A stretch of 64,000 bases of DNA from a virus. Taxonomy: Duplodnaviria; Heunggongvirae; Uroviricota; Caudoviricetes. Shown piece after piece: positions 1 through 11,973 of this stretch. The stretch is from the IMG/VR virus record IMGVR_UViG_3300022822_000008. One strand, given 5' to 3'. A model generated the notes under the pieces. The model made no database searches and was not told the origin of the DNA. It saw nothing but the letters and a program-made list of their open reading frames with translations. Within the stretch, counting starts at the first letter, position 1. Each line of letters begins with the position of its first letter. A program made the translations under genes and the position numbers.

Positions 1-122
1 TGCATATGAACTGTCCGAATGACAATTATAGTCATAACGTCCACAGATACCGTTTCTACCATTACCGAATTTTTTAATTCTTACGAAAAAGACGCAGTTT
101 CCGCAAGTTCGTCCTGTCGGCA

Positions 123-578
123 TTATGCTGATGTTATAATGATAGTTAGCGGTGGCATAAAATGATCAAAAGGCATACCTGAATATATCTTAGGTTGATT
201 ATATGTTTTAAAGTTTTGCAAAATGTCTTTATACCTACTTTGGCCTTGATCTGAAACTAACATTATTGCCTTGTCACCATTGAGTAGATAATAAAAGTCG
301 CAGCGAGACACTCCTCTGTGAAATGATTCTTCATAGTTTAATTTGAACATACAGTATTCTGCCAAAGCATCTAATTCGGTTGTTTTGCCTGTTTGTCTAG
401 GTCTTATAATTCCGAATGTAAGATGTTCTGTCATCGTAGATGCGATCCTGTCAAGAGACGGTATATGAGAAGGAAAACCTTTCAATAAATCAAGTGGTTT
501 AGAACCAATTTCCGTATAATATTTTTTGTCTATTAATTTAATACTGTGATATTCATCTATCAAATCTTTAAAATTCAT
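123..578 (-). CDS. Small P-loop NTPase (Walker A RPRQTGKTTE)
   Basis: 151-aa ORF with a Walker A motif. Confidence 0.45.
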   Translation of the reverse strand: MNFKDLIDEYHSIKLIDKKYYTEIGSKPLDLLKGFPSHIPSLDRIASTMTEHLTFGIIRPRQTGKTTELDALAEYCMFKLNYEESFHRGVSRCDFYYLLNGDKAIMLVSDQGQSRYKDILQNFKTYNQPKIYSGMPFDHFMPPLTIIITSA

Positions 579-610
579 AATAAATTCCTCAATTGAGTGT
601 CATGCAAAGT

Positions 611-688
611 TGGAAGGTGAAGCCAGATTCGAACTGGCGGTTGTAGAGATTTGCAATCCCCTGCGTTGGGCCACTCCGCCATTCACCT
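611..688 (-). tRNA. tRNA-Cys (anticodon GCA), CCA encoded
   Basis: Minus-strand cloverleaf folded by hand: acceptor AGGTGAA/TTCACCT, T-arm GCCAG-TTCGAAT-CTGGC, anticodon loop TTGCAAA. Confidence 0.65.
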
Positions 689-733
689 AATTAATTTATA
701 TTATAACACAACAGTAGTTTTGCTAACTTTTAT

Positions 734-1000
734 TTAAGCTGCGTAACTGCATGTCCATTTGTATGTACCACTGATGTGATACCAATCGCTGGGAATCTTA
801 TGATTAACTAAGAAAACAACATAGTTATTATCGTCTCTTAATCGACAGGCAATTGACATCCCTGAAGTATTGTGAAACCTTATAAAGGTCTTACCTTCAG
901 GATTTAAAGTTTGTTCGGTAGTTATAGCTACACCTCTTTCAGTTGCACCTATAACTGCAATCATCCCTATTAAACATAAAATTAATATTATTTTTTTCAT
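734..1000 (-). CDS. Small secreted protein (N-terminal signal peptide) within the tRNA cluster
   Basis: Hydrophobic N-terminus MKKIILILCLIGMIAVIGA. Confidence 0.4.
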   Translation of the reverse strand: MKKIILILCLIGMIAVIGATERGVAITTEQTLNPEGKTFIRFHNTSGMSIACRLRDDNNYVVFLVNHKIPSDWYHISGTYKWTCSYAA

Positions 1001-1043
1001 TTAATAAATCTCGTTTATAAGTTATTGAATGATTATTTAAATT

Positions 1044-1126
1044 TGGTGGGTATGATAGGAATCGAACCTATATTGCCTTGCGGATCAGATTTACAGTCTG
1101 AACACGATCCATACGTGTCTACACGC
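1044..1126 (-). tRNA. tRNA-Tyr-like (anticodon GTA, 13-nt variable arm); acceptor stem has 2 mismatches
   Basis: T-arm ATAGG-TTCGATT-CCTAT; perfect anticodon stem TCAGA/TCTGA with loop CTGTAAA; 3' CCA encoded; acceptor pairing is imperfect, so possibly a pseudogene. Confidence 0.45.
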
Positions 1127-1179
1127 CCAATTTAATACAACTATTATAACAAACTTGAAGTGAAATGTCAACCTTTATT

Positions 1180-1265
1180 TGGTACGAGTGGTGGGAGTCG
1201 AACCCACATGATTTTTCAATCAGAAGATTTTAAGTCTCCCGTGTATACCGTTCCACCACACTCGT
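1180..1265 (-). tRNA. tRNA-Leu (anticodon TAA), type II with 15-nt variable arm, CCA encoded
   Basis: Acceptor ACGAGTG/CACTCGT; T-arm GTGGG-TTCGACT-CCCAC; anticodon loop CTTAAAA; variable hairpin TGATT...AATCA. Confidence 0.75.
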
Positions 1266-1654
1266 AAATTCTGGACGACTCTAAACTCATGTTACGACTA
1301 GTATCGCATGAATCCGTTTTATACCTTTCTCACCGCGAACGCCCCAGCGGATACCTTTCGGTTAAGGATTTTTAAACTATTTCAATGATGAATTCTTCTA
1401 CTCTTCCCGAGTGTCGCCCGTAATTATTAATTACAGTTCTTGCCGTCAATATTCCTGTAGGTGCAAATGTAAAACCTATATAATAACCGTCTTTGTGTAA
1501 AACTAATCTTACAGGTCTGATTTCCAATTTTGTGGAAATGAGCAATGTCATAGTCTCTGAAAGTTTTTAGTTTTTTGAGAAATTTCATGATCAACCCTTA
1601 AATTCATTTCACGTTTCACGAGCAAGACTTAACCTCTTATCTCAATTAAAATTT

Positions 1655-1748
1655 CGGAGGGACAGAGATTCGAACTCTGACGCCACTTGCGCGGCTAACG
1701 GTTTTCAAGACCGCATCCGGTACCCAGAATCTTTCGGATTACCCCTCC
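1655..1748 (-). tRNA. tRNA-Ser (anticodon TGA), type II, no encoded CCA; oversized 24-nt D-region
   Basis: Acceptor GGAGGGG/TCCCTCC; T-arm CAGAG-TTCGAAT-CTCTG; anticodon stem GCGGT/ACCGT with loop CTTGAAA; 18-nt variable arm. Confidence 0.55.
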
Positions 1749-1899
1749 ATTAATAATGCTACAACCAGTTTAGGACTCGAACCATATCAACCGTCACTTT
1801 TCACCAATCACTACAAAGGTTATTACGATCTGGTATGCGCCAATACATCACATAGGTTGTATCATCTACTCGCGACAGTGAATCGCTTTCGATAATTCT

Positions 1900-2235
1900 T
1901 TACTTATACCATCTAACAAATAATTCTGATTTTTCTGTTTCTTTTATAACAGCGTCATCTGCAGTCATAACTACAATTCTTCTAAATGTATATGATACTT
2001 CTTTTGTTTCTTCTATCTTCTTTCTTTGCCGTTCAACATAAACTTGATACGTGCAACATTTTTTCATAGGTTCATAACCTTGCATCATTTCAACTGATTT
2101 AGTAAACTCAGCAAGAGACATTATATTTTCATCTCTTTCTTCAGGCGTAAGATGCGAAACGTAATACATAAAATATGGCATATTATATCCTATTGTTGAA
2201 TTAGGAGCCGGCTCCACGATAAAATGGAGTATCAC
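1900..2235 (-). CDS. Hypothetical protein
   Basis: 111-aa ORF between tRNA genes. Confidence 0.4.
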   Translation of the reverse strand: MILHFIVEPAPNSTIGYNMPYFMYYVSHLTPEERDENIMSLAEFTKSVEMMQGYEPMKKCCTYQVYVERQRKKIEETKEVSYTFRRIVVMTADDAVIKETEKSELFVRWYK

Positions 2236-2351
2236 CCGGTATTATTTGTTAAATTCTGTGGTTTCATGTTGGAGTCGTACCACACGTCATTATCAAGCCA
2301 TCATGAAACCACGACGGGACGTCTTTTCTTTCTGCAAAAAATAATTATAGG

Positions 2352-2423
2352 GGTGGCCTGCGATGATCGAAATCGCACCTTCAAGGTCACAACCTGGAGC
2401 TCTGCCACTTGAGCTAAGACCAC
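2352..2423 (-). tRNA. tRNA-His-like (anticodon GTG); anticodon stem has a C27-A43 mismatch; no CCA
   Basis: Perfect T-arm GCGAT-TTCGATC-ATCGC; D-arm GCTC-AAGTGGCA-GAGC; acceptor GTGGTCT/AGGCCAC; anticodon loop TTGTGAC. Confidence 0.5.
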
Positions 2424-2436
2424 ACCTATAATTACT

Positions 2437-2664
2437 TTAAATATGTTTATCTGAAAGCTTGCCAAATATATTCCATATAAGCCTATACAAATCTTCAGTT
2501 TGTTTTGGAGAAAAATTATGACCATGCATATCATGATACTCATTTGTTACTTCTTCTACAAACTTTTCTTGTTCTATTATTCTGTTATGTACATTAGTAG
2601 TAACATTATGATTCTTGAGTTTTTTGTATTCTTGGTATTCTTCTTCGTTTAATAAATATTGCAT
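2437..2664 (-). CDS. Hypothetical protein
   Basis: 75-aa ORF with a promoter-like -35/-10 upstream at 2696-2725. Confidence 0.4.
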   Translation of the reverse strand: MQYLLNEEEYQEYKKLKNHNVTTNVHNRIIEQEKFVEEVTNEYHDMHGHNFSPKQTEDLYRLIWNIFGKLSDKHI

Positions 2665-2695
2665 AATTTAATTCCTTTATCAATTCAATATAGCT

Positions 2696-2725
2696 ATTAT
2701 ATCAAACTTGGTACCAAATGTCAAT
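2696..2725 (-). promoter_or_regulatory. Sigma70-type early promoter (-35 ATTGAC, -10 TTGATATAAT)
   Basis: Minus-strand TTGATATAAT with 17-bp spacing to the -35 box. Confidence 0.5.
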
Positions 2726-2732
2726 AGTTATT

Positions 2733-2960
2733 TTATCTAAATTTTTGTTTATTACCAATTTTAGCTAAACCCCAAGCTAAAGATAAACAAACGATTACAA
2801 TTGCGATTGTAATCCAAAATGGAGAAAGTACCCACAACCAAGACCACGCAATAAACCCAGTCAGTTTCAATACAATGAAGACAATCGTCAATAGACCTAA
2901 GAAGCCAATACCACCATCGTTATTGTTGTTATTCACATTATTTCTGTTACTCATTTTCAT
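2733..2960 (-). CDS. Small membrane protein; paralog of 3572..3820
   Basis: Track ORF 2733..3080 trimmed to the internal start MKMSNRNN, preceded by GAGAGG, because the upstream part overlaps a tRNA; shares LTIVFIVLKL.G.I.WSW.WVLSP.W with 3572..3820. Confidence 0.5.
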   Translation of the reverse strand: MKMSNRNNVNNNNNDGGIGFLGLLTIVFIVLKLTGFIAWSWLWVLSPFWITIAIVIVCLSLAWGLAKIGNKQKFR

Positions 2961-2981
2961 TCCTCTCTCATTATTAAAAAT

Positions 2982-3056
2982 TGGCTGGGATATCAAGGTA
3001 CGATCCTGAAATGACGGATTTAAAGTCCGTAGTGTTGCCAATTGCACCATATCCCA
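2982..3056 (-). tRNA. tRNA-Gln paralog with anticodon TTA (reads UAA); candidate ochre suppressor; non-canonical T-loop ATCGTAC; CCA encoded
   Basis: Acceptor TGGGATA/TATCCCA is identical to the 5' acceptor of tRNA-Gln(TTG) at 3838..3912, and the discriminator G is shared; perfect anticodon stem ACGGA/TCCGT with loop CTTTAAA; D-stem 3 bp; T-stem TCAGG/CTTGA. Confidence 0.6.
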
Positions 3057-3069
3057 TTTATTAATAAGT

Positions 3070-3172
3070 GATGTTGCCATGGAATCGAACCACGAGGCTG
3101 CCGTCGCATTTAGCTCTTCCAGAACACGCAGGAATCGAACCTACTTGCCTATCCTTATACAACATCATAATT
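3070..3172 (-). other. Degenerate tRNA-like region: two T-arm/acceptor-like modules without a foldable D-arm and anticodon arm (tRNA remnants)
   Basis: Two motifs (CATGG-AATCGAA-CCACG at 3078-3094; GCAGG-AATCGAA-CCTAC at 3128-3144) each with an adjacent acceptor-like 7-mer; no 5-bp stem with 7-nt loop found between them. Confidence 0.3.
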
Positions 3173-3250
3173 TGGTGGGTAGTCACAGAATCGAACTGTG
3201 TTCTCAGGATCTTCAATCCCGCGCTGAATTACCAAACTAGCTCACTACCC
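3173..3250 (-). tRNA. tRNA-Phe (anticodon GAA), CCA encoded
   Basis: Acceptor GGGTAGT/ACTACCC perfect; T-arm CACAG-TTCGATT-CTGTG; anticodon loop TTGAAGA. Confidence 0.7.
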
Positions 3251-3260
3251 TTTATAACTT

Positions 3261-3336
3261 TGGTGGCCCACCCTGGGATCGAACCAGAAACCTTTCGATT
3301 ATGAGTCGAGTGCTCTACCAGTTGAGCTAACGGGCC
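3261..3336 (-). tRNA. tRNA-Met or Ile2 (anticodon CAT), CCA encoded
   Basis: Acceptor GGCCCGT/GTGGGCC; D-arm GCTC-AACTGGTA-GAGC; anticodon loop CTCATAA; the body is nearly identical to the tRNA at 7629..7704 but the acceptor stem differs. Confidence 0.75.
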
Positions 3337-3341
3337 GTATT

Positions 3342-3415
3342 TGGTACTAGGTGGAAGAATTGAACTTCCGTCTGACCATTATCAGTGGTCCGTTCTACCA
3401 TTGAACTAACCCAGT
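3342..3415 (-). tRNA. tRNA-Ile (anticodon GAT), CCA encoded
   Basis: Perfect T-stem GGAAG/CTTCC; perfect anticodon stem GACCA/TGGTC with loop CTGATAA; perfect D-stem GTTC/GAAC. Confidence 0.8.
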
Positions 3416-3435
3416 ATATTTAAAATAGTTAAAGG

Positions 3436-3508
3436 GGTGAACGACGGGGCTCGAACCCGCACAATCTCGAATCACAATCGAGGACATTACCAATTCTGCC
3501 ACGTCCAC
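3436..3508 (-). tRNA. tRNA-His (anticodon GTG), no CCA
   Basis: Perfect anticodon stem CTCGA/TCGAG with loop TTGTGAT; T-arm GCGGG-TTCGAGC-CCCGT; acceptor GTGGACG/CGTTCAC. Confidence 0.7.
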
Positions 3509-3571
3509 GCCTTTAACTACTTTTCAATTATATAACCATCCTTGGTCATGTTTTTAGTACATAGTATCAAA

Positions 3572-3820
3572 CTATGATTGTTTTGTTAACTTATATTTAA
3601 TTTTTTTGAAGCCTTCGATACCAAGTATCGCCACGAAAAAGATTAAATAACCAATAGCTCCGCAAGAAATGACAACAGTGATAGGTAACCATAAAGGCGA
3701 AAGTACCCACCACCAAGACCACGTAATTGTACCGACCAACTTTAAAACAATAAAGACAATAGTCAATACTCCCATTGTACCTATACCATCTGAACTTACT
3801 TCTTTTTTCCTTGAACTCAT
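3572..3820 (-). CDS. Small membrane protein; paralog of 2733..2960
   Basis: RBS GAGGAAG upstream of the ATG; two transmembrane segments; conserved motif shared with the paralog. Confidence 0.5.
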   Translation of the reverse strand: MSSRKKEVSSDGIGTMGVLTIVFIVLKLVGTITWSWWWVLSPLWLPITVVISCGAIGYLIFFVAILGIEGFKKIKYKLTKQS

Positions 3821-3837
3821 TTTACTTCCTCATCATA

Positions 3838-3912
3838 TTAATAATCTTGGCAGGGACAGAAGGATTCGAACCTTCGATACCGGATTCAAAGTCCAGCGCC
3901 TTAACCGCTTGG
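3838..3912 (-). tRNA. tRNA-Gln (anticodon TTG), CCA encoded
   Basis: Acceptor TGGGATA/TGTCCCT; perfect T-arm GAAGG-TTCGAAT-CCTTC; anticodon loop CTTTGAA. Confidence 0.75.
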
Positions 3913-3930
3913 CCATATCCCAATTGTAAT

Positions 3931-4005
3931 TTTATTAATTTGGTGCAAGGTGATGATAACGATCCATCCTCTAGGGATTTTCAATACCTTACTAATACAT
4001 CTCAG
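3931..4005 (-). tRNA. tRNA-Phe-like (anticodon GAA), second copy with non-canonical T-loop ATCGTTA; CCA encoded
   Basis: Acceptor GCAAGTT/ACCTTGC (6 of 7 pairs); D-stem ACTG/TAGT; anticodon stem AGGTA/TCCCT (4 of 5) with loop TTGAAAA. Confidence 0.5.
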
Positions 4006-4022
4006 TTAAACTTGCAAATATT

Positions 4023-4099
4023 TGGTATCAAGAACTGGAATCGAACCAGTATCAATTATTCGTATCTCTCGAAATGCTCTACCATTGAGCTATCCTGAT
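4023..4099 (-). tRNA. tRNA of undetermined specificity (anticodon loop AGAGATA lacks U33); CCA encoded
   Basis: Perfect T-arm ACTGG-TTCGATT-CCAGT; D-arm GCTC-AATGGTA-GAGC; acceptor ATCAGGA/TCTTGAT; the anticodon arm is non-canonical. Confidence 0.5.
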
Positions 4100-4216
4100 G
4101 TTTGAGATCGTACACGGCTCTCGACCGCAGACTAGATGAACTATTGAAGTGCATGAATCAACAAAGACGTCTCTATGTTGCTTTCTCAACTCAATCTAGT
4201 TATACGAAATAAGGTT

Positions 4217-4266
4217 ATCACAACTTGACATTTCCGCTCTAATTGCTTGATGTGAGAGGTTGTGAT
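4217..4266. other. Long imperfect hairpin (ATCACAAC...GTTGTGAT) immediately 3' of tRNA-Asp; possible processing site or small stable RNA
   Basis: 8-bp terminal inverted repeat with a partly self-complementary interior. Confidence 0.25.
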
Positions 4267-4271
4267 ATATT

Positions 4272-4347
4272 TGGCGGTGTGTGCGGGATTTGAACCCGCG
4301 ACCTCTTGCGTGACAGGCAAGCATTCTTACCCCTGAACTAACACCCC
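4272..4347 (-). tRNA. tRNA-Asp (anticodon GTC), CCA encoded
   Basis: Perfect T-arm GCGGG-TTCAAAT-CCCGC; perfect anticodon stem CTTGC/GCAAG with loop CTGTCAC. Confidence 0.8.
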
Positions 4348-4354
4348 AAAAATT

Positions 4355-4573
4355 TTAACTACACTTAATTCTGTTACCTATATAATCTCTAAAGATTTTA
4401 GGTTTTGTTTTTTGATCTGATTCAATATGAACCACATAAAAATGTTTTACATTATCAATACAAACGTATTTTACATTATGCGTTGGGTTTAGAATTGCAT
4501 ATATGCAAAGACATATAACCGTAATAACAGCTCCAATAATTCGTTTATATTTCATATTGTTTTCTTTTTTCAA
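4355..4573 (-). CDS. Small membrane or secreted protein
   Basis: 72 aa with a hydrophobic segment; promoter-like element at 4575-4604. Confidence 0.4.
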   Translation of the reverse strand: MKKENNMKYKRIIGAVITVICLCIYAILNPTHNVKYVCIDNVKHFYVVHIESDQKTKPKIFRDYIGNRIKCS

Positions 4574-4574
4574 T

Positions 4575-4604
4575 TCAGTGTGTACATTGTATCAAATATC
4601 TTGC
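4575..4604 (-). promoter_or_regulatory. Sigma70-type promoter (-35 GTTGAC, -10 TTGATACAAT)
   Basis: Consensus boxes upstream of ORF 4355..4573. Confidence 0.45.
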
Positions 4605-4627
4605 CAATGTCAACAACTAATATAATT

Positions 4628-4695
4628 TGGTGCGTCACAAGGGAGTCGAACCCTCAATGATTGGGTTTAGAATCCTACATTAACCATTATGACGC
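4628..4695 (-). other. Truncated tRNA-like element: acceptor plus T-arm and CCA, no anticodon arm
   Basis: T-arm GAGGG-TTCGACT-CCCTT and acceptor GCGTCAT/GTGACGC pair well, but only ~40 nt remain and no 5-bp stem with 7-nt loop exists; the 5' part overlaps the 3' end of ORF 4680..4949. Confidence 0.3.
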
Positions 4696-4949
4696 AATGT
4701 AACTCCAATACTTAAAACCCATCTGGAGCCTTTTTCAATCTTTTTAACTTTGTGGAAGTTAGCATCTGCTCTAAATAGACAGAATCGCCACCAACGAAAT
4801 ACAACGTTGCTACAAACAAATTCACCACCCTTATCAGCTTTTTTCAATGTAATATTAAACCGATAATGACGACCATATTTACCAGGATCTTTATGTTTTG
4901 GTATAAAGGAGCCTGTTTTATAATGGAATATATAAATGTCTGTCTTCAA
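4680..4949 (-). CDS. Hypothetical protein
   Basis: 89-aa ORF. Confidence 0.4.
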   Translation of the reverse strand: MKTDIYIFHYKTGSFIPKHKDPGKYGRHYRFNITLKKADKGGEFVCSNVVFRWWRFCLFRADANFHKVKKIEKGSRWVLSIGVTLRHNG

Positions 4950-5494
4950 ACGTTTGCTATAGAATAAAGTAAATATTCGATACCCCGAATTAAATTTATC
5001 ATTACCCCAACGGAATAATCTTAAACTTGGCGTTTGCGTTTTCTTCTACATTTTAGCACCTTCTTGTTTATCGAAAAATTCATCAAAACTGCAATGACCC
5101 ACATGAGCAGCAATTTTGTTTAGTTCTACTATCATGATATCTAAATAAGACATCACTTTGTTAAAATCTTCATTACTCATTTTACATTTCCTTATTAATA
5201 TCAATCAAAGAGCGAGTAGCAAGTGAAGCAATAAACAGTATTCGCTTGCCCCGAAGGATACAATACGAACAAAACAAATCACAAAAAACAAATCACACTT
5301 GTCGTTACATTAGTTCAGTTAGCAATGGACAAGTCTTAAGACACCCAATATAGACTGTAGCAGTAACAAATTGACCGTAAAGGTCTCCATTAATGTTCTG
5401 AAATTAATCAGAGGTACTTGTTCTCTTTTCTCTTGATTGATAGTCATCTGTATAGGTCCCCCTAGGGTAGACTGTTTCCGATGACGCGAACTCT

Positions 5495-6067
5495 TTAAAT
5501 TAGATTTGATTTTGAAAGTGATGCCTCTACACTAGGTGAAAGATCAATTTCTGTTTTTATATTCAACTCTAACAATTTATCTTTTAAATTTTGTCTAGTT
5601 CTTTTGTACGTAGCAATCTCTTTTTCCGCGTTACTTAAATACGACTTACTAAGTACTGAAGTTGAAAAATTGCTCGACATTCTATCGTAAGATGAACTGG
5701 ATTCATTGCTTTTAATTTTCCAAATTTTACCTGCGATCAATTCAGCACTCATTTGCTCACCAGCCGTAATTGCATCTTTGGCGTCTTTCAAATGCGCTTC
5801 AATTAAAGCGATTTCGGTAAGCAAGTCACTGACGCCTGCTTTATGATTACTCCTTGATACATCTTTGCGTATTCTGTACAAAATATTAGTCAGATCAGAT
5901 TTTAAAACTTCTGCATCTTTGAAATTACTTCTTGCTGTGTCAATTTGCACATTGGCATCTTCATGCTCATTCAATCGAACTACTGCAAGAGAAGAAAGAT
6001 TAATGTTTTTAATTACACTTTGTATTTCTTGTTGTAAGGCATTTGCCTTTCTTAAACTAATTTTCAT
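5495..6067 (-). CDS. Hypothetical coiled-coil protein
   Basis: 190-aa ORF in the tRNA region. Confidence 0.5.
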   Translation of the reverse strand: MKISLRKANALQQEIQSVIKNINLSSLAVVRLNEHEDANVQIDTARSNFKDAEVLKSDLTNILYRIRKDVSRSNHKAGVSDLLTEIALIEAHLKDAKDAITAGEQMSAELIAGKIWKIKSNESSSSYDRMSSNFSTSVLSKSYLSNAEKEIATYKRTRQNLKDKLLELNIKTEIDLSPSVEASLSKSNLI

Positions 6068-6092
6068 TTTACATCCTCATTATAAATTATAT

Positions 6093-6170
6093 TGGTGTTC
6101 ACGGTTGGAGTCGAACCAACGACCTCAGGATTAGAAATCCCGTGTTCTTTCCAGCTGAACTACGCGAACG
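6093..6170 (-). tRNA. tRNA-Arg (anticodon TCT), CCA encoded
   Basis: Perfect T-arm GTTGG-TTCGACT-CCAAC; anticodon loop TTTCTAA; perfect D-stem GTTC/GAAC. Confidence 0.7.
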
Positions 6171-6178
6171 TTATTAGG

Positions 6179-6254
6179 CATCCCCACGTGGATTTGAACC
6201 ACGGTTTCTGCTCCGAACAGAGCATTGTCCTAGGCCTGACTAGACGATAGGGAT
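6179..6254 (-). tRNA. tRNA of uncertain specificity (possibly Asn GTT); anticodon loop is 6 or 8 nt, not 7
   Basis: Perfect T-arm CGTGG-TTCAAAT-CCACG; acceptor ATCCCTA/TGGGGAT; D-stem GTCT/GGAC; anticodon region TGCTC-TGTTCG-GAGCA does not give a 7-nt loop. Confidence 0.5.
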
Positions 6255-6263
6255 ATTAAAATG

Positions 6264-6333
6264 AGCAGGTAAAGGGAATCGAACCCTTTCTACACAGCTT
6301 GGAAGGCTGGCGGATAACCTTTATCTTACCTGC
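6264..6333 (-). tRNA. tRNA-Gly (anticodon TCC), no CCA
   Basis: Perfect acceptor GCAGGTA/TACCTGC; perfect T-arm AAGGG-TTCGATT-CCCTT; anticodon loop CTTCCAA. Confidence 0.65.
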
Positions 6334-6523
6334 ATTAAACTACTTAAAACGCTGGTTCATCCTTCTTGCGAAGATGTTGAACTATATTGGTATTACACTT
6401 AATTATATTATCTGCATTCGCGCCTATGTGTGCAGTACGTAATGATTCACATAGATTCTCTAATTCAACTAAAAACTCATAATGATCTTCTTTGTAATCA
6501 AACATAATAATTCCCAAATAATT

Positions 6524-6598
6524 TGGTACACCTAGAGAGAATCGAACTCTCATTGTCAGGTTGAAAACCTGGTGTCCTGACCGTTAGACGATAGGTGT
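6524..6598 (-). tRNA. tRNA-Glu (anticodon TTC), CCA encoded
   Basis: Perfect acceptor ACACCTA/TAGGTGT; perfect T-arm GAGAG-TTCGATT-CTCTC; anticodon loop TTTTCAA. Confidence 0.8.
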
Positions 6599-6604
6599 AA
6601 AAAT

Positions 6605-6682
6605 TGGTAGCGAGTAATGGAATCGAACCATTCTCTGTTCGGCTTATGAGACCGATGAGTTCTACCAGAACTCTAACTCGCG
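6605..6682 (-). tRNA. tRNA-Met/Ile2 (anticodon CAT), CCA encoded; body differs from the other CAT tRNAs
   Basis: T-arm AATGG-TTCGATT-CCATT; anticodon stem TCGGT/GCCGA with loop CTCATAA; D-stem GAGT/ACTC; C1-U72 mismatch. Confidence 0.7.
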
Positions 6683-6807
6683 TTTGTCATTTATTGGAAC
6701 GGTTATCACTGAACGATCCGCAATCAGTAGCTTTATCCGTTATAGTATTTTTCAACTAAACATATAAGGCAGGTATTTATTTCTTCGTGTTTCGATTCAA
6801 TATAAAC

Positions 6808-6837
6808 ATTATATCAAAAAACTAAAGCAAAGTCAAC
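6808..6837 (-). promoter_or_regulatory. Early promoter cassette with conserved leader, positioned to drive the tRNA sub-cluster 6682..6093
   Basis: GTTGAC-17-TTGATATAAT followed by TGTTTATATTGAATCGAAACACGAAGAA; no ORF follows, only tRNA genes. Confidence 0.6.
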
Positions 6838-7187
6838 CTTTATTTTCAATTATTCTGATATTATTCTTAATATTTTCCGGCAAATTTAAATGTGCAATTT
6901 TTTTGATAAAGTTATTTCGTGCATTTTCTTCATTCTTCGCCTTTAAAGTCAACCTTACAAATTCACCTTCTTGTATCCCATATTCACCAGTTACAATAAA
7001 AGTTTTCATTCAACCTCTTTAGGAAATAATGCCGCGACTGCAGTGAAAAGGTTAAGTTCTCTCAATGACAGTTTTGTAATTTCATCAACTGCCGCATCAG
7101 GATCTTCTTTAAACATTTCTCGCATTTCCCTAACATATTGCGCGCTTATTTCCGGGTGTAACATATCGTACTCCATAATAAAAAAAT

Positions 7188-7260
7188 TGGCACCAGAGTT
7201 AGGAATTGAACCCAACAGACGAGGGGTTGGAATCCTGTCGATACCCTGTATCTCTCTGGC
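7188..7260 (-). tRNA. Compact tRNA, anticodon ambiguous (CCA/Trp or TCC/Gly)
   Basis: Acceptor GCCAGAG/CTCTGGT; T-arm TTGGG-TTCAATT-CCTAA; the anticodon region GGTTGGAAT gives two alternative weak stems. Confidence 0.45.
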
Positions 7261-7270
7261 ATTGTAAATG

Positions 7271-7336
7271 TATTCACTCTAGGGATCGAACCTCGGCGTT
7301 CGTAGCACCGCGCTCTTCCATCTGAGCTAAGCAAAT
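7271..7336 (-). pseudogene. tRNA-Arg(ACG)-like remnant: D-arm, anticodon arm and T-loop present; variable loop and T-stem collapsed; acceptor does not pair
   Basis: D-arm GCTC-AGATGGAA-GAGC; anticodon stem CGGTG/CGCCG with loop CTACGAA; GGTTCGATCC T-loop lies directly against the anticodon stem (~6 nt missing). Confidence 0.35.
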
Positions 7337-7341
7337 ATCAG

Positions 7342-7433
7342 TGGCGGATAGACTAGGATTCGAACCTAGGGATCCCTGTAACAGGACCGACGAGTTAGCA
7401 ACCCGTTGCCTTAAGCCACTCAGCCATCTATCC
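7342..7433 (-). tRNA. tRNA-Ser (anticodon GCT), type II, CCA encoded
   Basis: Perfect acceptor GGATAGA/TCTATCC; perfect T-arm CTAGG-TTCGAAT-CCTAG; anticodon stem ACGGG/CTCGT with loop TTGCTAA; 20-nt variable arm. Confidence 0.75.
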
Positions 7434-7440
7434 AAATAAA

Positions 7441-7518
7441 TGGTGTGAACGGTGGGAGTCGAACCCACAAGCATCTGTTTCTAAAACAGATAGGTAAACC
7501 AATTCCCGTCACATTCAC
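7441..7518 (-). tRNA. tRNA with anticodon TAG (Leu-type anticodon) but a short type I variable loop
   Basis: Perfect T-arm GTGGG-TTCGACT-CCCAC; perfect anticodon stem TCTGT/ACAGA with loop TTTAGAA; acceptor GTGAATG/CGTTCAC. Confidence 0.55.
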
Positions 7519-7533
7519 AATAAAAGCATAATG

Positions 7534-7608
7534 TCAGAAAGGAAAGATTCGAACTTTCGACCCCACGGATCCAAACCGTGTACTCTGACCAGACTGAGCT
7601 ACTCTCTG
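7534..7608 (-). tRNA. tRNA-Pro (anticodon TGG), no CCA
   Basis: Perfect T-arm GAAAG-TTCGAAT-CTTTC; perfect anticodon stem CACGG/CCGTG with loop TTTGGAT. Confidence 0.8.
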
Positions 7609-7628
7609 ACATTATGCTCTTTAAATTT

Positions 7629-7704
7629 TGGTGCACCGCCCTGGATTCGAACCAGAAACCTTTCGATTATGAGTCGAGTGCTCTACCAGTTGAGCTAGCA
7701 GTGC
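7629..7704 (-). tRNA. tRNA-Met/Ile2 (anticodon CAT), CCA encoded; near-duplicate body of 3261..3336
   Basis: The internal ~60 nt are identical to the tRNA at 3261..3336 apart from a T-loop base; acceptor GCACTGC/GCGGTGC. Confidence 0.75.
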
Positions 7705-7727
7705 GTAATTTTAACTTTAAACAAATT

Positions 7728-7798
7728 TGGTGGAGAACCAGAGAATCGAACTCTGTTCTAGTCGGTGCAAGCGACCATCTGCATCCATGACGTTCCCC
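7728..7798 (-). tRNA. tRNA-Ala (anticodon TGC) with the G3:U70 identity pair, CCA encoded
   Basis: Acceptor GGGGAAC/GTTCTCC gives G3-U70; perfect T-arm CAGAG-TTCGATT-CTCTG; anticodon loop CTTGCAC. Confidence 0.8.
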
Positions 7799-7804
7799 AA
7801 TTTT

Positions 7805-8197
7805 TTACACCTTTAACTTATCATCTCTAGTAAGGTAGTTTTTCTTTCGCATAGTTGTTTTTGCTATAACATCTAATTCATCATTTCGTTTATCGTACTT
7901 AACCATAAAAGGTATGTTGATGTTTGAGTTAATGTCGAATAAAACTGCTTCGACACCTGGATTCATACCTCCGATTTTAGGTCCATGTTTTGCAAATACC
8001 TTCTTGAACATACTCATTAGCTCAACTATTGTAATTGCATTACCGTTTCTAGCATCGTTGACTCTTTCTCTAAAATGAGTACCAGATAAATCTATATCTA
8101 CACCAACAGCAGCGAATAACTTATCAGCAAATTTCTCTACTATACCAATATCTGTTCTTGAAAGTTCTTCTGAGAACATTTCTTTAAATCTTTTCAT
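7805..8197 (-). CDS. Hypothetical protein
   Basis: 130-aa ORF. Confidence 0.5.
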   Translation of the reverse strand: MKRFKEMFSEELSRTDIGIVEKFADKLFAAVGVDIDLSGTHFRERVNDARNGNAITIVELMSMFKKVFAKHGPKIGGMNPGVEAVLFDINSNINIPFMVKYDKRNDELDVIAKTTMRKKNYLTRDDKLKV

Positions 8198-8385
8198 TGT
8201 GACTACCTTATTATTTTTATCTATTTATCTATTTATGTACAAGGTTATCAACTAAATAATTATATGTCCAGTATCCTCACCTAAAAGAGGAATGCATCGG
8301 CCGTTTGCATCGCTAATCTTGACCCTATGCGTCCGAGGATTGGCATTTAGGAACGATCAATTTTGCATACTGGCATATAATTATT

Positions 8386-8461
8386 TGGTAGTGTGAAATG
8401 GATTTGAACCATTATCTAATCCCTTATGAGGAGATTTCTTTACCAATTAAGATACCACACT
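8386..8461 (-). tRNA. tRNA with anticodon CAT (fourth CAT tRNA), CCA encoded
   Basis: Perfect T-arm AATGG-TTCAAAT-CCATT; anticodon stem ATCTC/GGGAT with loop CTCATAA; acceptor AGTGTGG/TCACACT. Confidence 0.7.
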
Positions 8462-8472
8462 ATTAAAAAATT

Positions 8473-8548
8473 TGGTACTCGATGATGGGATCGAACCATC
8501 AACATCTGCCATGTAAAGGCAGTGCTCTGCCTATTGAGCTAATCGAGT
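8473..8548 (-). tRNA. tRNA-Val (anticodon TAC), CCA encoded
   Basis: Perfect acceptor ACTCGAT/ATCGAGT; perfect T-arm GATGG-TTCGATC-CCATC; perfect anticodon stem with loop TTTACAT. Confidence 0.8.
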
Positions 8549-8610
8549 TTTGGTGCCGAAACCCGGAACTGACCCGAGAACTAATGGTTACAAATCACTT
8601 GTTTTTCCAG

Positions 8611-9252
8611 TTAAACTATTTCGGCTATTTCGTTAATTGATTGCCAACTAAGTTGGCTCTTATTTAAAATTATTATTCTAACGCCATTCTGTTCTTCTAC
8701 TAGTTTTATCTTTTCACAATCTTTGAACCCAAGGCTTGGGTTGATGTTGTTAATTAGAAAGTCGTTTTTAGGGTCTAAATATAAATCATAGTCTATTAAA
8801 TATATGTCTGGTGTATAGGTTCTTGCTTTGCCTTTTGGGTCAATATAATTGAACCTCGAGCAAGTATCCCATTTAATGTCATTTTCATCTAAGCTCTTTG
8901 CAACTTCTAATTCGTAACTACTACCTAAAGTTTTACCTTTATATTTTATCCATCTAGACTGAGTTACGCCACCAAGGCCACGTTTTTTCGCGGCTATTGA
9001 TAATTTATTCCTAGCTTCTTGAGACCAATTACGATTTCTATTACGTTCGCTAATCTTATTTCTCGCGTCATCACTTAAAATATAAGGTATACCAGTTTCC
9101 GAAGATTTGATCCATTGATTGCTATTCTTCCTCTTATCATAATCAATTTTAGGGTCTGCAATTCTATCTGGATTTTCTGCGCATCTTGGTTGATGTGCGC
9201 TCAATACCCTTTTCTTTTCTATTTCTTTGTTACAATATTTGCAATTAAACAT
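8611..9252 (-). CDS. Putative free-standing homing endonuclease (N-terminal CxxC zinc finger, NUMOD3-like repeats, C-terminal nuclease-like domain)
   Basis: CKYCNKEI...HQPRC; repeated KIS/KLS.RNRNRNWSQEARNKLS motifs; located directly beside the tRNA cluster. Confidence 0.45.
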   Translation of the reverse strand: MFNCKYCNKEIEKKRVLSAHQPRCAENPDRIADPKIDYDKRKNSNQWIKSSETGIPYILSDDARNKISERNRNRNWSQEARNKLSIAAKKRGLGGVTQSRWIKYKGKTLGSSYELEVAKSLDENDIKWDTCSRFNYIDPKGKARTYTPDIYLIDYDLYLDPKNDFLINNINPSLGFKDCEKIKLVEEQNGVRIIILNKSQLSWQSINEIAEIV

Positions 9253-9424
9253 TAATGTTCTCTAATAATTTTAATATATTTATATTTATATAATTTAATT
9301 ATTCAAAACCAGTGCATCACCATCAATGCTTAATCGGCAGTTTGTTTATCTTCCCTTAGAGCCGTTAACGATAAACTTTGGCACGGTTATCAATTTTTCA
9401 ATTGTTCATCAATTCAGAACGTGT

Positions 9425-9454
9425 ATTATATCAAACTAATTTCTATTTGTCAAC
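9425..9454 (-). promoter_or_regulatory. Sigma70-type early promoter
   Basis: GTTGAC-17-TTGATATAAT upstream of the homing-endonuclease-like ORF. Confidence 0.55.
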
Positions 9455-9910
9455 CATTATTTTTGTTTTTATTTCATTTAATTTCGCAGTTAATCGTAAA
9501 AATGCTTTATGATATTTTTTCATCCGTTCGAAATCTTTATCTGTAATTCCTTTAAGTCGAGTTATATCACTGTTGTCTTTCAAATCAGCAAGTTTAACTC
9601 TTATTGAGTCAACATTCGTTTCTACACGACATAGATAATCTTCGTACGGTTCGCCTTTAATCTTTGTCATACATATAATACCTGAAATGACCCGTTCGGT
9701 GAATCCTTCTTGTCGTAAATAATTCAGCGTTATTTCTGGGCAATCTTCAACTGTATCATGAAGAACTGCAATTTGTTGTGTTTCATATCCATCAACAGAT
9801 TTCATTACTCTTAATGGATGTAGAATATATGGATGTCCACCTTTATCAACTTGATCTACGTGAGCTCTTGCAGCTATCATAATTGCTTTGCTTAACATAT
9901 CAATTTCCAT
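9443..9910 (-). CDS. HD-domain (p)ppGpp hydrolase (small alarmone hydrolase, SpoT/Mesh1-like)
   Basis: AARAHVDQ..GGHPYILHPLRV..AVLHDTVED motifs in a 155-aa single-domain protein. Confidence 0.7.
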   Translation of the reverse strand: MEIDMLSKAIMIAARAHVDQVDKGGHPYILHPLRVMKSVDGYETQQIAVLHDTVEDCPEITLNYLRQEGFTERVISGIICMTKIKGEPYEDYLCRVETNVDSIRVKLADLKDNSDITRLKGITDKDFERMKKYHKAFLRLTAKLNEIKTKIMVDK

Positions 9911-10433
9911 AATTATTCTCTTAATGTTTTATTCAATACAACTATTGTATCAAGTTTAATAATTTTGTCAATGACTAATTTGCCCAATCTATACTAAAAA
10001 AGGTTAACAAATAAATGTTAACCTTTAGTTTAATTTTTTAAATTAATACTTACGTTAACATCGGTAGATCCACTCATCATTATTTTTATGTGACGGCATC
10101 CCTACAGGACTAATTATAAAATACGCGCTCACAATAGACTGTCGCGTCGAGGCGAGTCTTAAGTTTGCTTGTATTAGTTGAATTATAGAATTCATTTTAA
10201 TCCTTTGTTTAATTATTAATTTTATTTATAACACTTTGCATCTTTCGTGAAAAACTTTTTACCTGATATTCGTCAGTTTATTTAACATTGTAAACAAACG
10301 TATACACTCCATTTCTTCCGGCTCGACACTAGGATTTGATTGAATTTCTTTTGCCGTTGGAGCTTTGTCGTATTGACCATAGACACCTGATGTTTTACTT
10401 TTATACATGTACTTCGTCATAATCACTTTCCTG

Positions 10434-10637
10434 TTATTCTGGAATGCTATTTAAACACTCATTCACTAATTGACTATTTTCATAGCCGTTTGCTGTTGCA
10501 TCTAGAACCTCACATGGAGTAAGATTCCTCGTTTTTTGTGGTTCAGTTGTGGTGTCTGTAGTGTATATTTTCAATAAGAACACACACATCAGCAAAAAAA
10601 TTAAAATTGCTGCTGTTTTAGTTGTTTTATCTTTCAT
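10434..10637 (-). CDS. Small secreted or membrane protein
   Basis: Hydrophobic N-terminus. Confidence 0.35.
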   Translation of the reverse strand: MKDKTTKTAAILIFLLMCVFLLKIYTTDTTTEPQKTRNLTPCEVLDATANGYENSQLVNECLNSIPE

Positions 10638-10751
10638 GTTATGTAACCCTCTACTAATTGTAAACCTAAGAACATTCCAACAAAAAGTATTACTAAAACT
10701 TTTATGATATGTCCTAATATTTTTGCTGTTTGATGTATTCTCAAAATATGA

Positions 10752-11351
10752 TCACTCAGTAGTATTTACTATTTTCTTGCCGGAGGTGCCTATCATTATT
10801 TTGGTATGCATTTTTCCGCCGATTTCACGCTGATAAAAGTAATCTTTTAACTGTGGTGTATATCGGACATTTTCATCATCATCTGGAACTTCACTTAATT
10901 CCTCTCCCGATATTTTCTCAGCTTCTTCAGGTGTCTTTGCATATTTAATAATGAAATCCAGACCTAGAATTTTTTTCGTAAAACCTAAGGCATTGCCTGA
11001 AATTTCCGAATATGACCTACCAAATTCATCTTTTTTGATGTCAATTAAAGCATCTTTACCAGCATCGGATCCATCAGTAAATGAAGCAACACCTTTTCGG
11101 CCGCCTTTATCTTTATAAAGGATTCCAGCTACGATTTTATCATTTTTTCTGACTATTTTCCAAAACGGAATTTTTTTAATCATATCTTCAGCAGAGTTAA
11201 AACCACTACCCTTAATTCCACCTTGTGATTTATATGATTGTTGTAGCATATCAAATACAGTATCAGCATACTTTTCACGTTCATCTTTATCTTTTGTGAA
11301 TAAATTTAACACTCGCTCATTTAACTGCATGTGATTTTTAAAACTTTCCAT
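10752..11351 (-). CDS. Hypothetical protein
   Basis: 199-aa ORF. Confidence 0.5.
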   Translation of the reverse strand: MESFKNHMQLNERVLNLFTKDKDEREKYADTVFDMLQQSYKSQGGIKGSGFNSAEDMIKKIPFWKIVRKNDKIVAGILYKDKGGRKGVASFTDGSDAGKDALIDIKKDEFGRSYSEISGNALGFTKKILGLDFIIKYAKTPEEAEKISGEELSEVPDDDENVRYTPQLKDYFYQREIGGKMHTKIMIGTSGKKIVNTTE

Positions 11352-11384
11352 CGATCCGTATTCCTATTAAACATTTAAAACTAT

Positions 11385-11921
11385 TTATAATTCACAATCG
11401 ACGAAGTAAGTGTTAAAAGCATAGTCGATCAACTCATTAACATTATCCATATTTTCAACTCTATGGTGTCCACCTTCGTGACATTTTAAATAAGACACAT
11501 CTTTCAACATCTTAATTGTTTTCGAGACTTCAATAATTTCGTCGCTTGTTTCGATGTAAACGTATTTCGGGACTCTATTTTTTAACTCATTTTCACTAAT
11601 ATTTGGATATGCCAAATGTGGCAAGCTTTTTTCTGGGAAAATTGCGGGGTTGATAATCACTGCAGGTATTTCATATTTCGCAGACATTTTCAATGCCCAA
11701 TAAGCACCCAAACTATGACCAACAAGCATTTCAGGTTTCGACGATTCTATTTGTTCAGAATAAAGTGCGTTAATCTCTGCATAGCTCAAGAAATCATAGT
11801 TTACGGTTTGACATTTTTTGTCATACCTTTTGATTTGAGTGAATTTATTTGTTTGACTACTTGATTGATAGCCATGGTAAAACATAATCATTTTGTAAAA
11901 CTCCGTAAATCGAAACAACAT
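11385..11921 (-). CDS. Alpha/beta-hydrolase fold esterase (GHSLGA nucleophile elbow)
   Basis: GxSxG motif MLVGHSLGAYWA; size and layout of YqiA-like esterases. Confidence 0.55.
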   Translation of the reverse strand: MLFRFTEFYKMIMFYHGYQSSSQTNKFTQIKRYDKKCQTVNYDFLSYAEINALYSEQIESSKPEMLVGHSLGAYWALKMSAKYEIPAVIINPAIFPEKSLPHLAYPNISENELKNRVPKYVYIETSDEIIEVSKTIKMLKDVSYLKCHEGGHHRVENMDNVNELIDYAFNTYFVDCEL

Positions 11922-11973
11922 TAATTCGATGTGTTAATTGTATCAAGCGCTGCAGAGACTGTCAACCTTTATT

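Follow-up and report, generated by a model that had tools for sequence, protein, structure and literature searches.

The window analysed here is a stretch of 64,000 nucleotides from a virus of the class Caudoviricetes (IMG/VR record IMGVR_UViG_3300022822_000008). Its first 8.6 kb form a minus-strand tRNA cluster, in which ARAGORN called 23 genes and Rfam added two more above threshold. We studied one element of this cluster, a tRNA-Phe(GAA) gene located on the minus strand at 3941..4015 (the candidate; its parts and neighbours are compiled in Table 1). Its T-loop carries A54/T58 in place of the canonical T54/A58, a state that is called swapped in the following. A first-pass annotation had placed the element at 3931..4005, which is 10 nt off, as this interval omits the tRNA positions 1-10 and takes in 10 nt of spacer instead. 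The tRNA-shaped sequence with the anticodon GAA was nevertheless present on the minus strand, and reading of this strand bore out the T-loop ATCGTTA, where TTCGAxx would have been canonical.

Parsed from its 5'-end, the candidate reads GCAAGTT TA ACTG AGATGTAT TAGT A AGGTA TTGAAAA TCCCT AGAG GATGG ATCGTTA TCATC ACCTTGC A CCA. In a cloverleaf with stems of 7, 4, 5 and 5 bp, 19 of the 21 pairs form; the earlier description as a complete cloverleaf was thus too generous in view of the mismatches U6·C67 and U30·C40, the G53·U61 wobble and U19. The T-arm (GATGG-ATCGTTA-TCATC) consists of a 5-bp stem closing an A54-U55-C56-R57-U58 loop. While U8, A14, G18, U33, U55 and C56 are kept, G19 and C61 have each been replaced by U and U54/A58 by A54/U58, by which the candidate departs from the conserved core of a canonical elongator tRNA (Rfam RF00005/ARAGORN definition). 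With G53·U61 and U19 it also lacks G53-C61 and G18G19, two features retained by the swapped class. The 7-nt anticodon loop, the discriminator and the 3'-terminal CCA are all present.

ARAGORN did not call a tRNA at this position, neither at default settings nor down to a threshold of 60%, and the Rfam tRNA model (gathering score 29 bits) gave no match even at E<=10. Silence of the tRNA search tools had been named beforehand by the first-pass annotation as a result speaking against a tRNA at this place, and formally this is what was obtained. It would fit a chance cloverleaf of AT-rich spacer DNA without tRNA ancestry; in addition, loose cloverleaf patterns with A-T-C-R-T loops turned up 30 times in shuffled versus 84 times in real sequence. 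Exchange of T19 for G in silico was sufficient for ARAGORN to call the candidate as tRNA-Phe(gaa) at a threshold of 90%, and after repair of all defects it was called at default. We then built a covariance model (R1) from 15 A54/T58 tRNAs of other phages, which included no sequence of the window, drew only on tRNAs whose variable loop has 4 nt and was given the cloverleaf explicitly. Searched over positions 1..12000 of the window with filters off, R1 matched the candidate end to end (model positions 1-75) with 44.3 bits and an E-value of 3.8e-12. This was the third best match in the cluster, above most of the tRNAs called there. Thus, we concluded from the full-length match that the candidate is derived from a tRNA and belongs to the swapped class, which contradicts a chance origin.

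A near-identity DNA search of 50,697 phage records disclosed no close relative of this phage region, only short matches to tRNA-Asp, and proteins with approximately 53% identity to those of the phage are found in myoviruses of Klebsiella, Proteus and Salmonella. The exact 21-mer of the candidate T-arm was absent from IMG/VR. Distant relatives were gathered by help of an HD phosphohydrolase, an open reading frame (ORF) of 82 amino acids encoding a membrane protein and an ORF of 190 amino acids (30-56% amino acid identity). Short-word BLAST detected no homolog of the candidate in them, and it was in these phages that the swapped class came to light. A homolog of the 82-amino-acid membrane protein with 82% identity led to a related phage, represented by the contigs L120-L122 of the same and of sister metagenomes. 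On L120 the gene order is tRNA-Asp, spacer, 'Ser-aga', tRNA-Ile, tRNA-Phe, tRNA-Asn, a GIY-YIG endonuclease, tRNA-Gln, a D12 methyltransferase and the 82-amino-acid ORF, as compared with tRNA-Asp, spacer, 'Ser-aga', candidate, tRNA-Gln and the 82-amino-acid ORF in the window. The slot between 'Ser-aga' and tRNA-Gln thus harbors, at L120:865-939, a 75-nt tRNA-Phe(GAA) with the T-loop ATCGTTA, perfect stems, G18G19 and G53-C61. This gene was called by ARAGORN and scored 56.6 bits with R1 and 47.1 bits with Rfam. Accordingly, an intact swapped T-loop alone does not hide a tRNA from the standard tools, and the candidate is invisible to ARAGORN and Rfam because of its additional defects.

Aligned with the L120 ortholog, the candidate shows 15 differences over 75 positions (80% identity). 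Eight of them make up four two-sided compensatory changes (10:25 G-C to A-U, 27:43 U-A to A-U, 28:42 A-U to G-C and 31:39 U-A to A-U), which point to past selection on the structure of the candidate. Another four are one-sided and damaging (G6, G30, G19 and C61, each to U). The flanks are much better conserved than the gene itself, 98.0% for the block of tRNA-Asp, spacer and 'Ser-aga' and 98.8% for tRNA-Gln, indicating that the slot is mosaic and that the candidate did not arise in place from the L120 gene but represents an allele of its own, which is older. A recombinational turnover fits with the homing endonuclease residing in the L120 slot; in phage T4, SegB has a comparable action on the tRNA region. 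A pattern search with the T-arm and acceptor revealed two further alleles, L126 and L128, within otherwise unrelated phage tRNA clusters. They are nearly identical to L120 in the acceptor, D-arm and T-arm and completely different in their anticodon stems, in which each of them has two pyrimidine-pyrimidine mismatches. The candidate shares 77-78% identity with both. A second tRNA-Phe was not found in the available stretches of L120 (7.6 kb), L126 or L128; in the latter two the allele is the sole tRNA-Phe seen in its locus. At six positions invariant in L120, L126 and L128 the candidate has changes of its own, all of which are from G/C to A/T in a genome of 35% G+C. Together with the ACCA, which is encoded in the same register as in the neighbouring tRNAs, the identity to a syntenic bona fide tRNA-Phe, the compensatory pair changes and the relatives in unrelated phages stand against a chance cloverleaf. 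By the R1 match and this homology, an origin by chance is effectively refuted, and the candidate is a genuine tRNA-derived gene.

The genes related to the candidate constitute a family whose hallmarks are the D-arm GCTGAGATGGATTAGC, a length of 75 nt, the anticodon GAA, a 4-nt variable loop and A73-CCA. The D-arm of the candidate (ACTGAGATGTATTAGT) agrees with it at 13 of 16 positions and deviates by G10A and C25T, which are compensatory, and by G19T. Besides its homology and synteny, the candidate has the 75-nt layout of the family, as it could be aligned with 71 members without a gap. Its members, about half of which are A54/T58, are carried by Bacillus phages, by phages of the T4-like and T5-like types and by bacterial tRNA arrays. 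A BLAST search of cultured phages with the L120 gene gave 179 records, six of which were inspected. The swapped tRNA-Phe with ATCGTTA is annotated in Citrobacter phage Tr1, Salmonella phage vB_SenS_SB9 (SB9_t007) and Bacillus phage vB_BanH_Emiliahah (EMILIAHAH_57), while no feature is annotated at this gene in Serratia phage CHI14 (MF036690, 72818..72889) and Proteus phage Stubb (MH830339, 27683..27751). The annotation 'none' also stands in the BLAST match table for several further Serratia, Kosakonia, Erwinia and Proteus phages. Canonical loops were encountered in family members as well: the tRNA-Phe of Providencia phage PR1 possesses TTCGATA, and that of phage T5 (T5t19, NC_005859 35096..35170), which has the same D-arm and an acceptor identical to that of Stubb, possesses TTCAATT.

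Scanning of IMG/VR for the D-arm word of the family yielded at least 77 unique members, in which the 54/58 states were A/T in 38, T/A in 25, C/A in eight and A/A in two. Among the 77 unique members listed, ATCGTTA was the commonest swapped loop (36/77), and 49 had a nucleotide other than U at position 54 (A 40, C 8, G 1), with U55, C56, G53-C61 and G18G19 being nearly invariant. The 53:61 pair was G-C in 73 of the members listed and G·U in none; 18 of the 77 had mismatches in the anticodon stem and approximately 10% a mismatch in the acceptor. A scan for the commonest swapped T-arm, which is independent of the D-loop, resulted in 61 parsed tRNAs, 60 of which had GG in the D-loop. Since these samples were anchored on exact D-arm or T-arm words, degenerate members are under-sampled in them. 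In 185,579 species genomes the D-arm word was present at 97 places, of which 95 could be parsed and 16 were swapped. Nearly all of these sites were surrounded by numerous tRNAs, with 14-30 per 8 kb being common. The family travels with phages and mobile tRNA arrays. The word was concentrated in metagenome-assembled genomes of Pyrinomonadaceae, Blastocatellia and other Acidobacteriota (L353-L449), where it usually accompanied a canonical TTCGATT loop in dense tRNA arrays.

In the gapless alignment of 72 sequences (the candidate and the 71 members), 96.7% of the cells of the cloverleaf, 19:56 and 54:58 pairs were paired versus 64.9% after shuffling. The covariation score was 0.773 compared to 0.163, and none of 500 shuffles reached it, a significance that is overstated by the shuffle control as the sequences are related. 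Slid controls, however, gave at most 0.14, and together with the many pair types per position they make the family structure secure. At 54:58 the alignment contained A-U in 46 rows, U-A in 19 and other combinations in seven. Alleles with identical T-stems (GTTGG/CCAAC) differ only at 54 and 58 (TTCGATA versus ATCGTTA). The swap is an inherited trait of the family and a compensatory double substitution preserving the structure, which is not peculiar to this locus; in the T-loop of many members A54·U58 takes the place of the reverse-Hoogsteen pair T54·A58. The possibility that A54 matters for a GATC site, which G53-A54-T55-C56 forms at the DNA level, was rejected as it leaves the covariation of T58 unexplained.

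Within this family the candidate stands out. Among the 72 rows, a 19:56 pair other than G-C, G·U at 53:61, an unpaired 30:40 and A-U at 10:25 each occur in the candidate only. It has four structural defects, the L120 ortholog none; 82 cleanly parsed members comprised 44 with no defect, 15 with one, 18 with two, three with three and two with four. The cloverleaf of the candidate was calculated at -5.3 kcal/mol, in comparison to a family median of -20.8 (range -27.4 to -14.2). An alternative fold that is not a cloverleaf reached -15.0 kcal/mol and was 9.7 kcal/mol more stable, a gap exceeding those of all 71 other members. Likewise, the Rfam score dropped from 47.1 bits for the intact ortholog to no match at all. 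Judged by its sequence, the candidate is the most degenerate member of its family. It has lost conserved structural positions that its orthologs retain, and an intact isoacceptor exists in the same genome, both of which are signs of a pseudogene. This isoacceptor, the canonical tRNA-Phe(GAA) that the first-pass annotation had correctly recognised, was called by ARAGORN and Rfam and lies about 690 nt away; it makes the candidate redundant. From the defects and this second gene we infer a loss of function: the candidate is probably a decaying paralog that contributes little or nothing to decoding. With the G19-C56 elbow pair gone, G53-C61 reduced to G·U and two stem mismatches gained, it probably represents a redundant copy in an early stage of decay, still tRNA-shaped enough for excision along with its neighbours yet a poor or dead decoder.

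Several observations weigh against decay. The candidate is without indels, and its length, register, anticodon loop (U33/GAA/A37), T-loop, A73 and CCA are intact, so that decay, if real, must be recent, or the RNA is still in use. The change at 10:25 was compensated (A-U) within the candidate's own lineage. Mismatches are tolerated in the family, as the above counts of anticodon-stem and acceptor mismatches among the members listed demonstrate, and the L126 and L128 alleles bear two of them each despite being the sole tRNA-Phe seen in their loci. Being an old allele of its own in a slot prone to recombination, the candidate does not allow its defects to be dated. All available contigs of the phage (approximately 100% identity) were identical across the candidate and gave no population signal of relaxed constraint. 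Finally, the word-anchored samples under-represent degenerate members.

The same observations lend some weight to the principal alternative, namely that the candidate is still a working, structurally weak tRNA-Phe(GAA), whose L-shape is stabilised by modifications, Mg2+ and protein partners, and that the phage keeps both a canonical-loop and a swapped-loop tRNA-Phe. The elements for decoding and charging are all there (GAA, U33, A37, A73, CCA and U59, in the light of the Phe identity set), no indels have occurred, the 10:25 pair is compensated and the R1 score surpasses those of most called tRNAs of the cluster. Mismatched stems are also found in members that are the only tRNA-Phe seen in their locus. 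Moreover, AT-rich tRNAs often lack the cloverleaf as minimum-energy fold; only 46 of 71 family members have it as such. On the other hand, the four defects coincide at those structural positions that are conserved best, three of the four occur in no other of the 72 members, G19 is kept in 60 of 61 class members, and the cloverleaf is approximately 9 kcal/mol weaker than that of the weakest other member. The intact isoacceptor in the same cluster and the disappearance of the Rfam match relative to the ortholog speak against this explanation, too, and we regard a functional tRNA as possible but not likely.

The surroundings of the candidate are relevant for its expression. A strong promoter-like site heads a unit composed of an ORF, tRNA-Asp, spacer, 'Ser-aga', candidate, tRNA-Gln and the 82-amino-acid ORF, and there was no terminator-like site between this promoter-like site and the candidate. 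From its position within a tRNA transcription unit we infer that the candidate is almost certainly transcribed, and it is probably still released when the neighbouring tRNAs are processed. Situated 7 nt and 18 nt from functional tRNAs in the same unit, it might also have been repurposed as a tRNA-like RNA without a role in decoding, be it as a punctuation mark for processing, as a stable RNA of the T5 type or as a decoy for a host nuclease or enzyme that binds tRNAs. Its acceptor stem, A73 and CCA would remain recognisable to end-processing enzymes, and for the tRNA cluster of phage T5 the record lists RNA1, RNA2 and RNA3 as 'tRNA-like stable RNAs with unknown functions', together with a tRNA pseudogene. 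We consider such a conversion improbable. The degenerate state is conserved in no other genome, the only close ortholog being a normal tRNA; loss of G19-C56 removes the face that tRNA-binding factors use and would leave a poor mimic; nothing in the candidate sequence points to a new function; and the swapped class as a whole behaves as decoders.

Table 1. Features of the candidate tRNA-Phe(GAA) gene and of its surroundings in the window
Feature	Coordinates	Strand	Basis
Candidate degenerate tRNA-Phe(GAA), swapped-T-loop family	3941..4015	minus	sequence read and parsed; R1 model match; syntenic ortholog L120:865-939
Anticodon GAA, positions 34-36, in 7-nt loop UUGAAAA with U33 and A37; loop intact	3980..3982	minus	sequence parse
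T-loop ATCGTTA; A54 = 3963, T58 = 3959	3957..3963	minus	parse and family alignment
U19 instead of G19; G19-C56 elbow pair lost	3997	minus	parse and 72-row alignment
U61; G53·U61 wobble replaces near-universal G53-C61	3956	minus	parse and 72-row alignment
U6 facing C67 (3950); acceptor-stem mismatch	4010	minus	parse; G6-C67 in L120, L126 and L128 alleles
U30 facing C40 (3976); anticodon-stem mismatch	3986	minus	parse and 72-row alignment
Encoded discriminator A73 and CCA, then AAT like most neighbouring tRNAs	3941..3944	minus	3'-end comparison across cluster tRNAs
Canonical tRNA-Phe(GAA), intact, T-loop TTCGATT; different tRNA-Phe lineage	3173..3250	minus	ARAGORN; Rfam 45.1 bits; R1 29.9 bits; alignment
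UUA-anticodon tRNA (ochre-suppressor type), T-loop ATCGTAC	2982..3056	minus	ARAGORN; Rfam 47.5 bits; R1 48.4 bits
tRNA-Glu			R1 44.5 bits
Upstream neighbour tRNA, ARAGORN 'Ser-aga', 7 nt from candidate	4023..4099	minus	in block 98.0% identical to L120
Downstream neighbour tRNA-Gln(UUG), 18 nt from candidate	3848..3922	minus	98.8% identical to L120
Promoter-like site TTGACA-16-TACAAT, 11/12, TG-extended	4586..4613	minus	consensus match only

To determine how widespread the swapped state is, ARAGORN was run on 119 loci from distantly related phage tRNA clusters and on the window. The 1414 tRNAs obtained were T/A at 54/58 in 1356 cases, A/T in 41, A/A in 12, G/G in two, C/A in one and T/T in none. 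The A54/T58 tRNAs span anticodons for Asp, Ile, Lys, Thr, Glu, Gln, Trp, Gly, Met, Leu and Asn and are otherwise well formed. In the window, the UUA suppressor-type tRNA shares the swapped state with the candidate, as had been noticed before. Of 50 A54 tRNAs of the other phages, 47 had no second tRNA with their anticodon beside them, mostly within clusters of 22-34 tRNAs; canonical tRNAs of these relatives had a duplicate with the same anticodon in 6.7%. G18G19 (60/61), G53-C61, U33 and CCA are kept in the class, and the T5 tRNA-Phe, a family member with canonical loop, is a documented substrate of the E. coli phenylalanyl-tRNA synthetase PheRS (cited as ref. 199 of a review). The sole-copy status, the conserved features and this substrate indicate working decoders. 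The first-pass annotation had suspected a distinct sub-class that is processed differently or serves a non-translational role: a recurrent sequence class does exist, with 41 of 1414 tRNAs and about half of the Phe family, while a role outside translation is at odds with 47 of 50 being sole decoders, and the class is best described as ordinary decoders.

According to the reviews cited, on which the rarity of the state rests, U54 is universally conserved in cellular tRNAs and A54 is absent from bacterial ones. A54/A58 is tolerated in eukaryotic initiator tRNA-Met and in tRNA-Ala(AGC), whereas neither bacteria nor archaea are reported to have it; pairs of several kinds between positions 1 and 5 reportedly fit into the T-loop motif. 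It is plausible that A54/A58 is an intermediate toward A54/U58. A literature search retrieved no paper containing 'A54-U58' and no published description of the swapped T-loop. This loop is real and widespread and apparently undescribed.

In the course of this survey a tRNA-Thr(GGU) was observed that ARAGORN missed, with the T-loop AGCATTA and the D-loop AAAAGCA (L053:1789-1862, L065:2120-2193, L067:7469-7542, L069:2729-2802 and L072:3578-3651). Compared to the L086 ortholog (ATCGTTA/AAAGGTA), G18 to A covaries with U55 to G, suggesting a non-canonical elbow that appears to be maintained.

We also considered why position 54 has changed in so many phage tRNAs. A54·U58 and C54 loops could exist because loss of U54 confers resistance to host factors that read U54-U55-C56, for instance T-loop-cleaving Schlafen/Cash nucleases, with U58 compensating and keeping the loop folded. 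This proposal concerns the class and is compatible with decay, continued function or repurposing of the candidate itself. The CRISPR-associated Schlafen CbCash was reported in 2026 to cut tRNAs 5' of U55 in the UUC motif; its cleavage requires U54, single mutations of U54 or U55 abolish it, and whether phage tRNAs are targeted was left by its authors as an open question. Resistance would agree with the high share of non-U54 members among those listed, in which U55 and C56 are near fixed, with natural alleles on identical T-stems that differ only at 54 and 58, and with the described universality of U54 in cells. Phage tRNAs are also already known to escape anticodon nucleases by mutations of the anticodon loop (van den Berg et al. 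2023, PMC10264068, and the PARIS and retron studies). Against it, the swap affects only one to five of approximately 20-34 tRNAs per cluster, which would give little protection from a nuclease of broad specificity, and a near-neutral, tolerated alternative pair that spreads with a mobile gene family explains the pattern as well. Resistance to a nuclease, which the first-pass annotation had also brought up for the swapped tRNAs, is plausible given the U54 requirement of CbCash, but as the cause of these loops it is a tentative idea, for which the odds are rather low. Still somewhat more doubtful is the further step of taking A54·U58 (and C54) as an anti-defence adaptation of phage and mobile-array tRNAs, by which the Phe relic and the UUA suppressor of the window would belong to the resistant set. 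Natural allele pairs differing only at 54/58 offer a direct and cheap test of phage escape from T-loop-directed defence or modification.

Some further elements of the cluster deserve mention. The UUA tRNA is a diverged paralog of tRNA-Gln(UUG), with which it has the 5'-part TGGGATATGG in common, and each of the two is followed by a paralogous ORF for a small membrane protein (74 and 82 amino acids, phrog_1374). The segments 2733..3056 and 3572..3922 (minus strand) stem from an old segmental duplication, after which one tRNA copy changed its anticodon and gained A54/T58. Whether the candidate was part of this event was checked and discarded: the duplication is clear for tRNA and ORF and stops short of the candidate. 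Between the canonical tRNA-Phe and the UUA tRNA, 116 unannotated nucleotides (3057..3172, minus strand) contain two T-arm-like motifs (GTAGG-TTCGATT-CCTGC and CGTGG-TTCGATT-CCATG) and a possible acceptor pairing ATGTTGT...GCAACAT. They have the look of remnant tRNAs or of an unusual tRNA-like element of great length, and there was no match to them by ARAGORN, Rfam or R1.

The tRNA called 'Ser(aga)' has no long variable arm, is similar to tRNA-Ile and exhibits the anticodon loop AGAGATA with G33 instead of U33. Its counterpart is L120:698-774; the sequences match, and the enclosing block is 98% identical. The same block comprises a non-coding spacer of 172 nt between tRNA-Asp and 'Ser-aga' (4100..4271, minus strand; L120:526-697). 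A structured RNA in this spacer was dismissed on a fold z-score of -0.95 and the lack of an Rfam match; in phage T5, comparable places are occupied by stable RNAs without a known function. With the T-loop GTCAGTT (G54, A57, G58), tRNA-Thr(UGU) (8551..8625, minus strand) adds a third non-canonical 54/58 state to the cluster. At 6177..6254 (minus strand) ARAGORN called a tRNA to which it assigned no identity and whose 'anticodon' comprised two bases (tt); R1 matched it weakly (18.3 bits) and Rfam gave no match at E<=10. Weak R1 matches on the minus strand without an ARAGORN call were found at 7728..7798 (23.1 bits), 7269..7336 (17.9 bits), 7188..7260 (9.2 bits) and 4628..4695 (14.3 bits), and these are possibly further degenerate tRNA remnants. 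In Rfam searches 7728..7798 resembled tmRNA (26.1 bits) and 4631..4696 tRNA-Sec (24.2 bits).

Within the phage population, presence/absence polymorphisms of endonuclease-like ORFs were discernible. Relative to positions 7651..7671 of the window, contig L037 (7649-8417) contains additional 767 bp with an ORF of 215 amino acids next to tRNA-Met(CAU), which is partly duplicated. A group I intron was excluded as explanation for this insertion, as Rfam found none and an intact tRNA lies beside a free-standing ORF. Contig L039 is devoid of a 483-bp segment (window 4578..5060) carrying an ORF of 89 amino acids (4680..4949). Elsewhere in the window the minus strand encodes an HD phosphohydrolase (9443..9910), a nucleotidyltransferase (16546..17451) and two RNA ligases (39361..40536 and 46186..47205; Rnl1-like and Rnl2-like). 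This set resembles a kit for tRNA repair or maturation and suggests that the phage faces tRNA-directed host defences.

If the candidate is in decay, its locus presents a tRNA gene on its way out and illustrates the ordinary turnover of tRNA clusters in phages, whose genes homing endonucleases reshuffle. Degenerate phage tRNAs and those with a non-canonical elbow escape the standard tRNA finders, and, as the records of Serratia phage CHI14 and Proteus phage Stubb demonstrate, even intact swapped tRNA-Phe genes lack annotation in some GenBank entries. The reversed 54-58 pair is common in tRNAs of mobile elements; in one tRNA-Phe family, distributed over T5-like, T4-like and Bacillus phages, it reaches about half of the members.

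Among known systems, the closest counterparts are the swapped tRNA-Phe genes of the cultured phages SB9, Tr1, Emiliahah, CHI14 and Stubb, whose T-arm is GRTGG-ATCGTTA-CCAYC. The candidate shares their T-loop, length, register and most of the D-arm. In those genes all stems are paired throughout and both G18G19 and G53-C61 are in place; the candidate departs from them by U6·C67, U30·C40, U19 and U61 and is missed by standard tools. The tRNA-Phe genes of T5 and PR1 belong to the same family with canonical T54/A58; they affirm that both states exist and that the swap is a covariation of two positions. Bacterial tRNA arrays house the same D-arm among many tRNAs as well, the window by contrast being a phage genome and not a chromosomal array. 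Eukaryotic initiator tRNA-Met and tRNA-Ala(AGC) are natural examples of tRNAs that do without U54 in the 54-58 pair and still function. Their A54·A58 is, however, a purine-purine pair in which A58 is kept, while in the phage class both partners have been exchanged. Phage tRNAs escaping anticodon nucleases also depart from the host consensus at sites read by tRNA-targeting factors; their changes are located in the anticodon loop, and PMC10264068 is silent on the T-loop and T-arm. The T5 RNAs RNA1, RNA2 and RNA3 and the pseudo tRNA-Gln2 are, like the candidate, degenerate, tRNA-shaped and CCA-ending elements among real tRNA and homing-endonuclease genes. They have no sequence relationship to it, and by the record notes experiments demonstrated that they are stable and expressed, whereas the candidate is known from its sequence.

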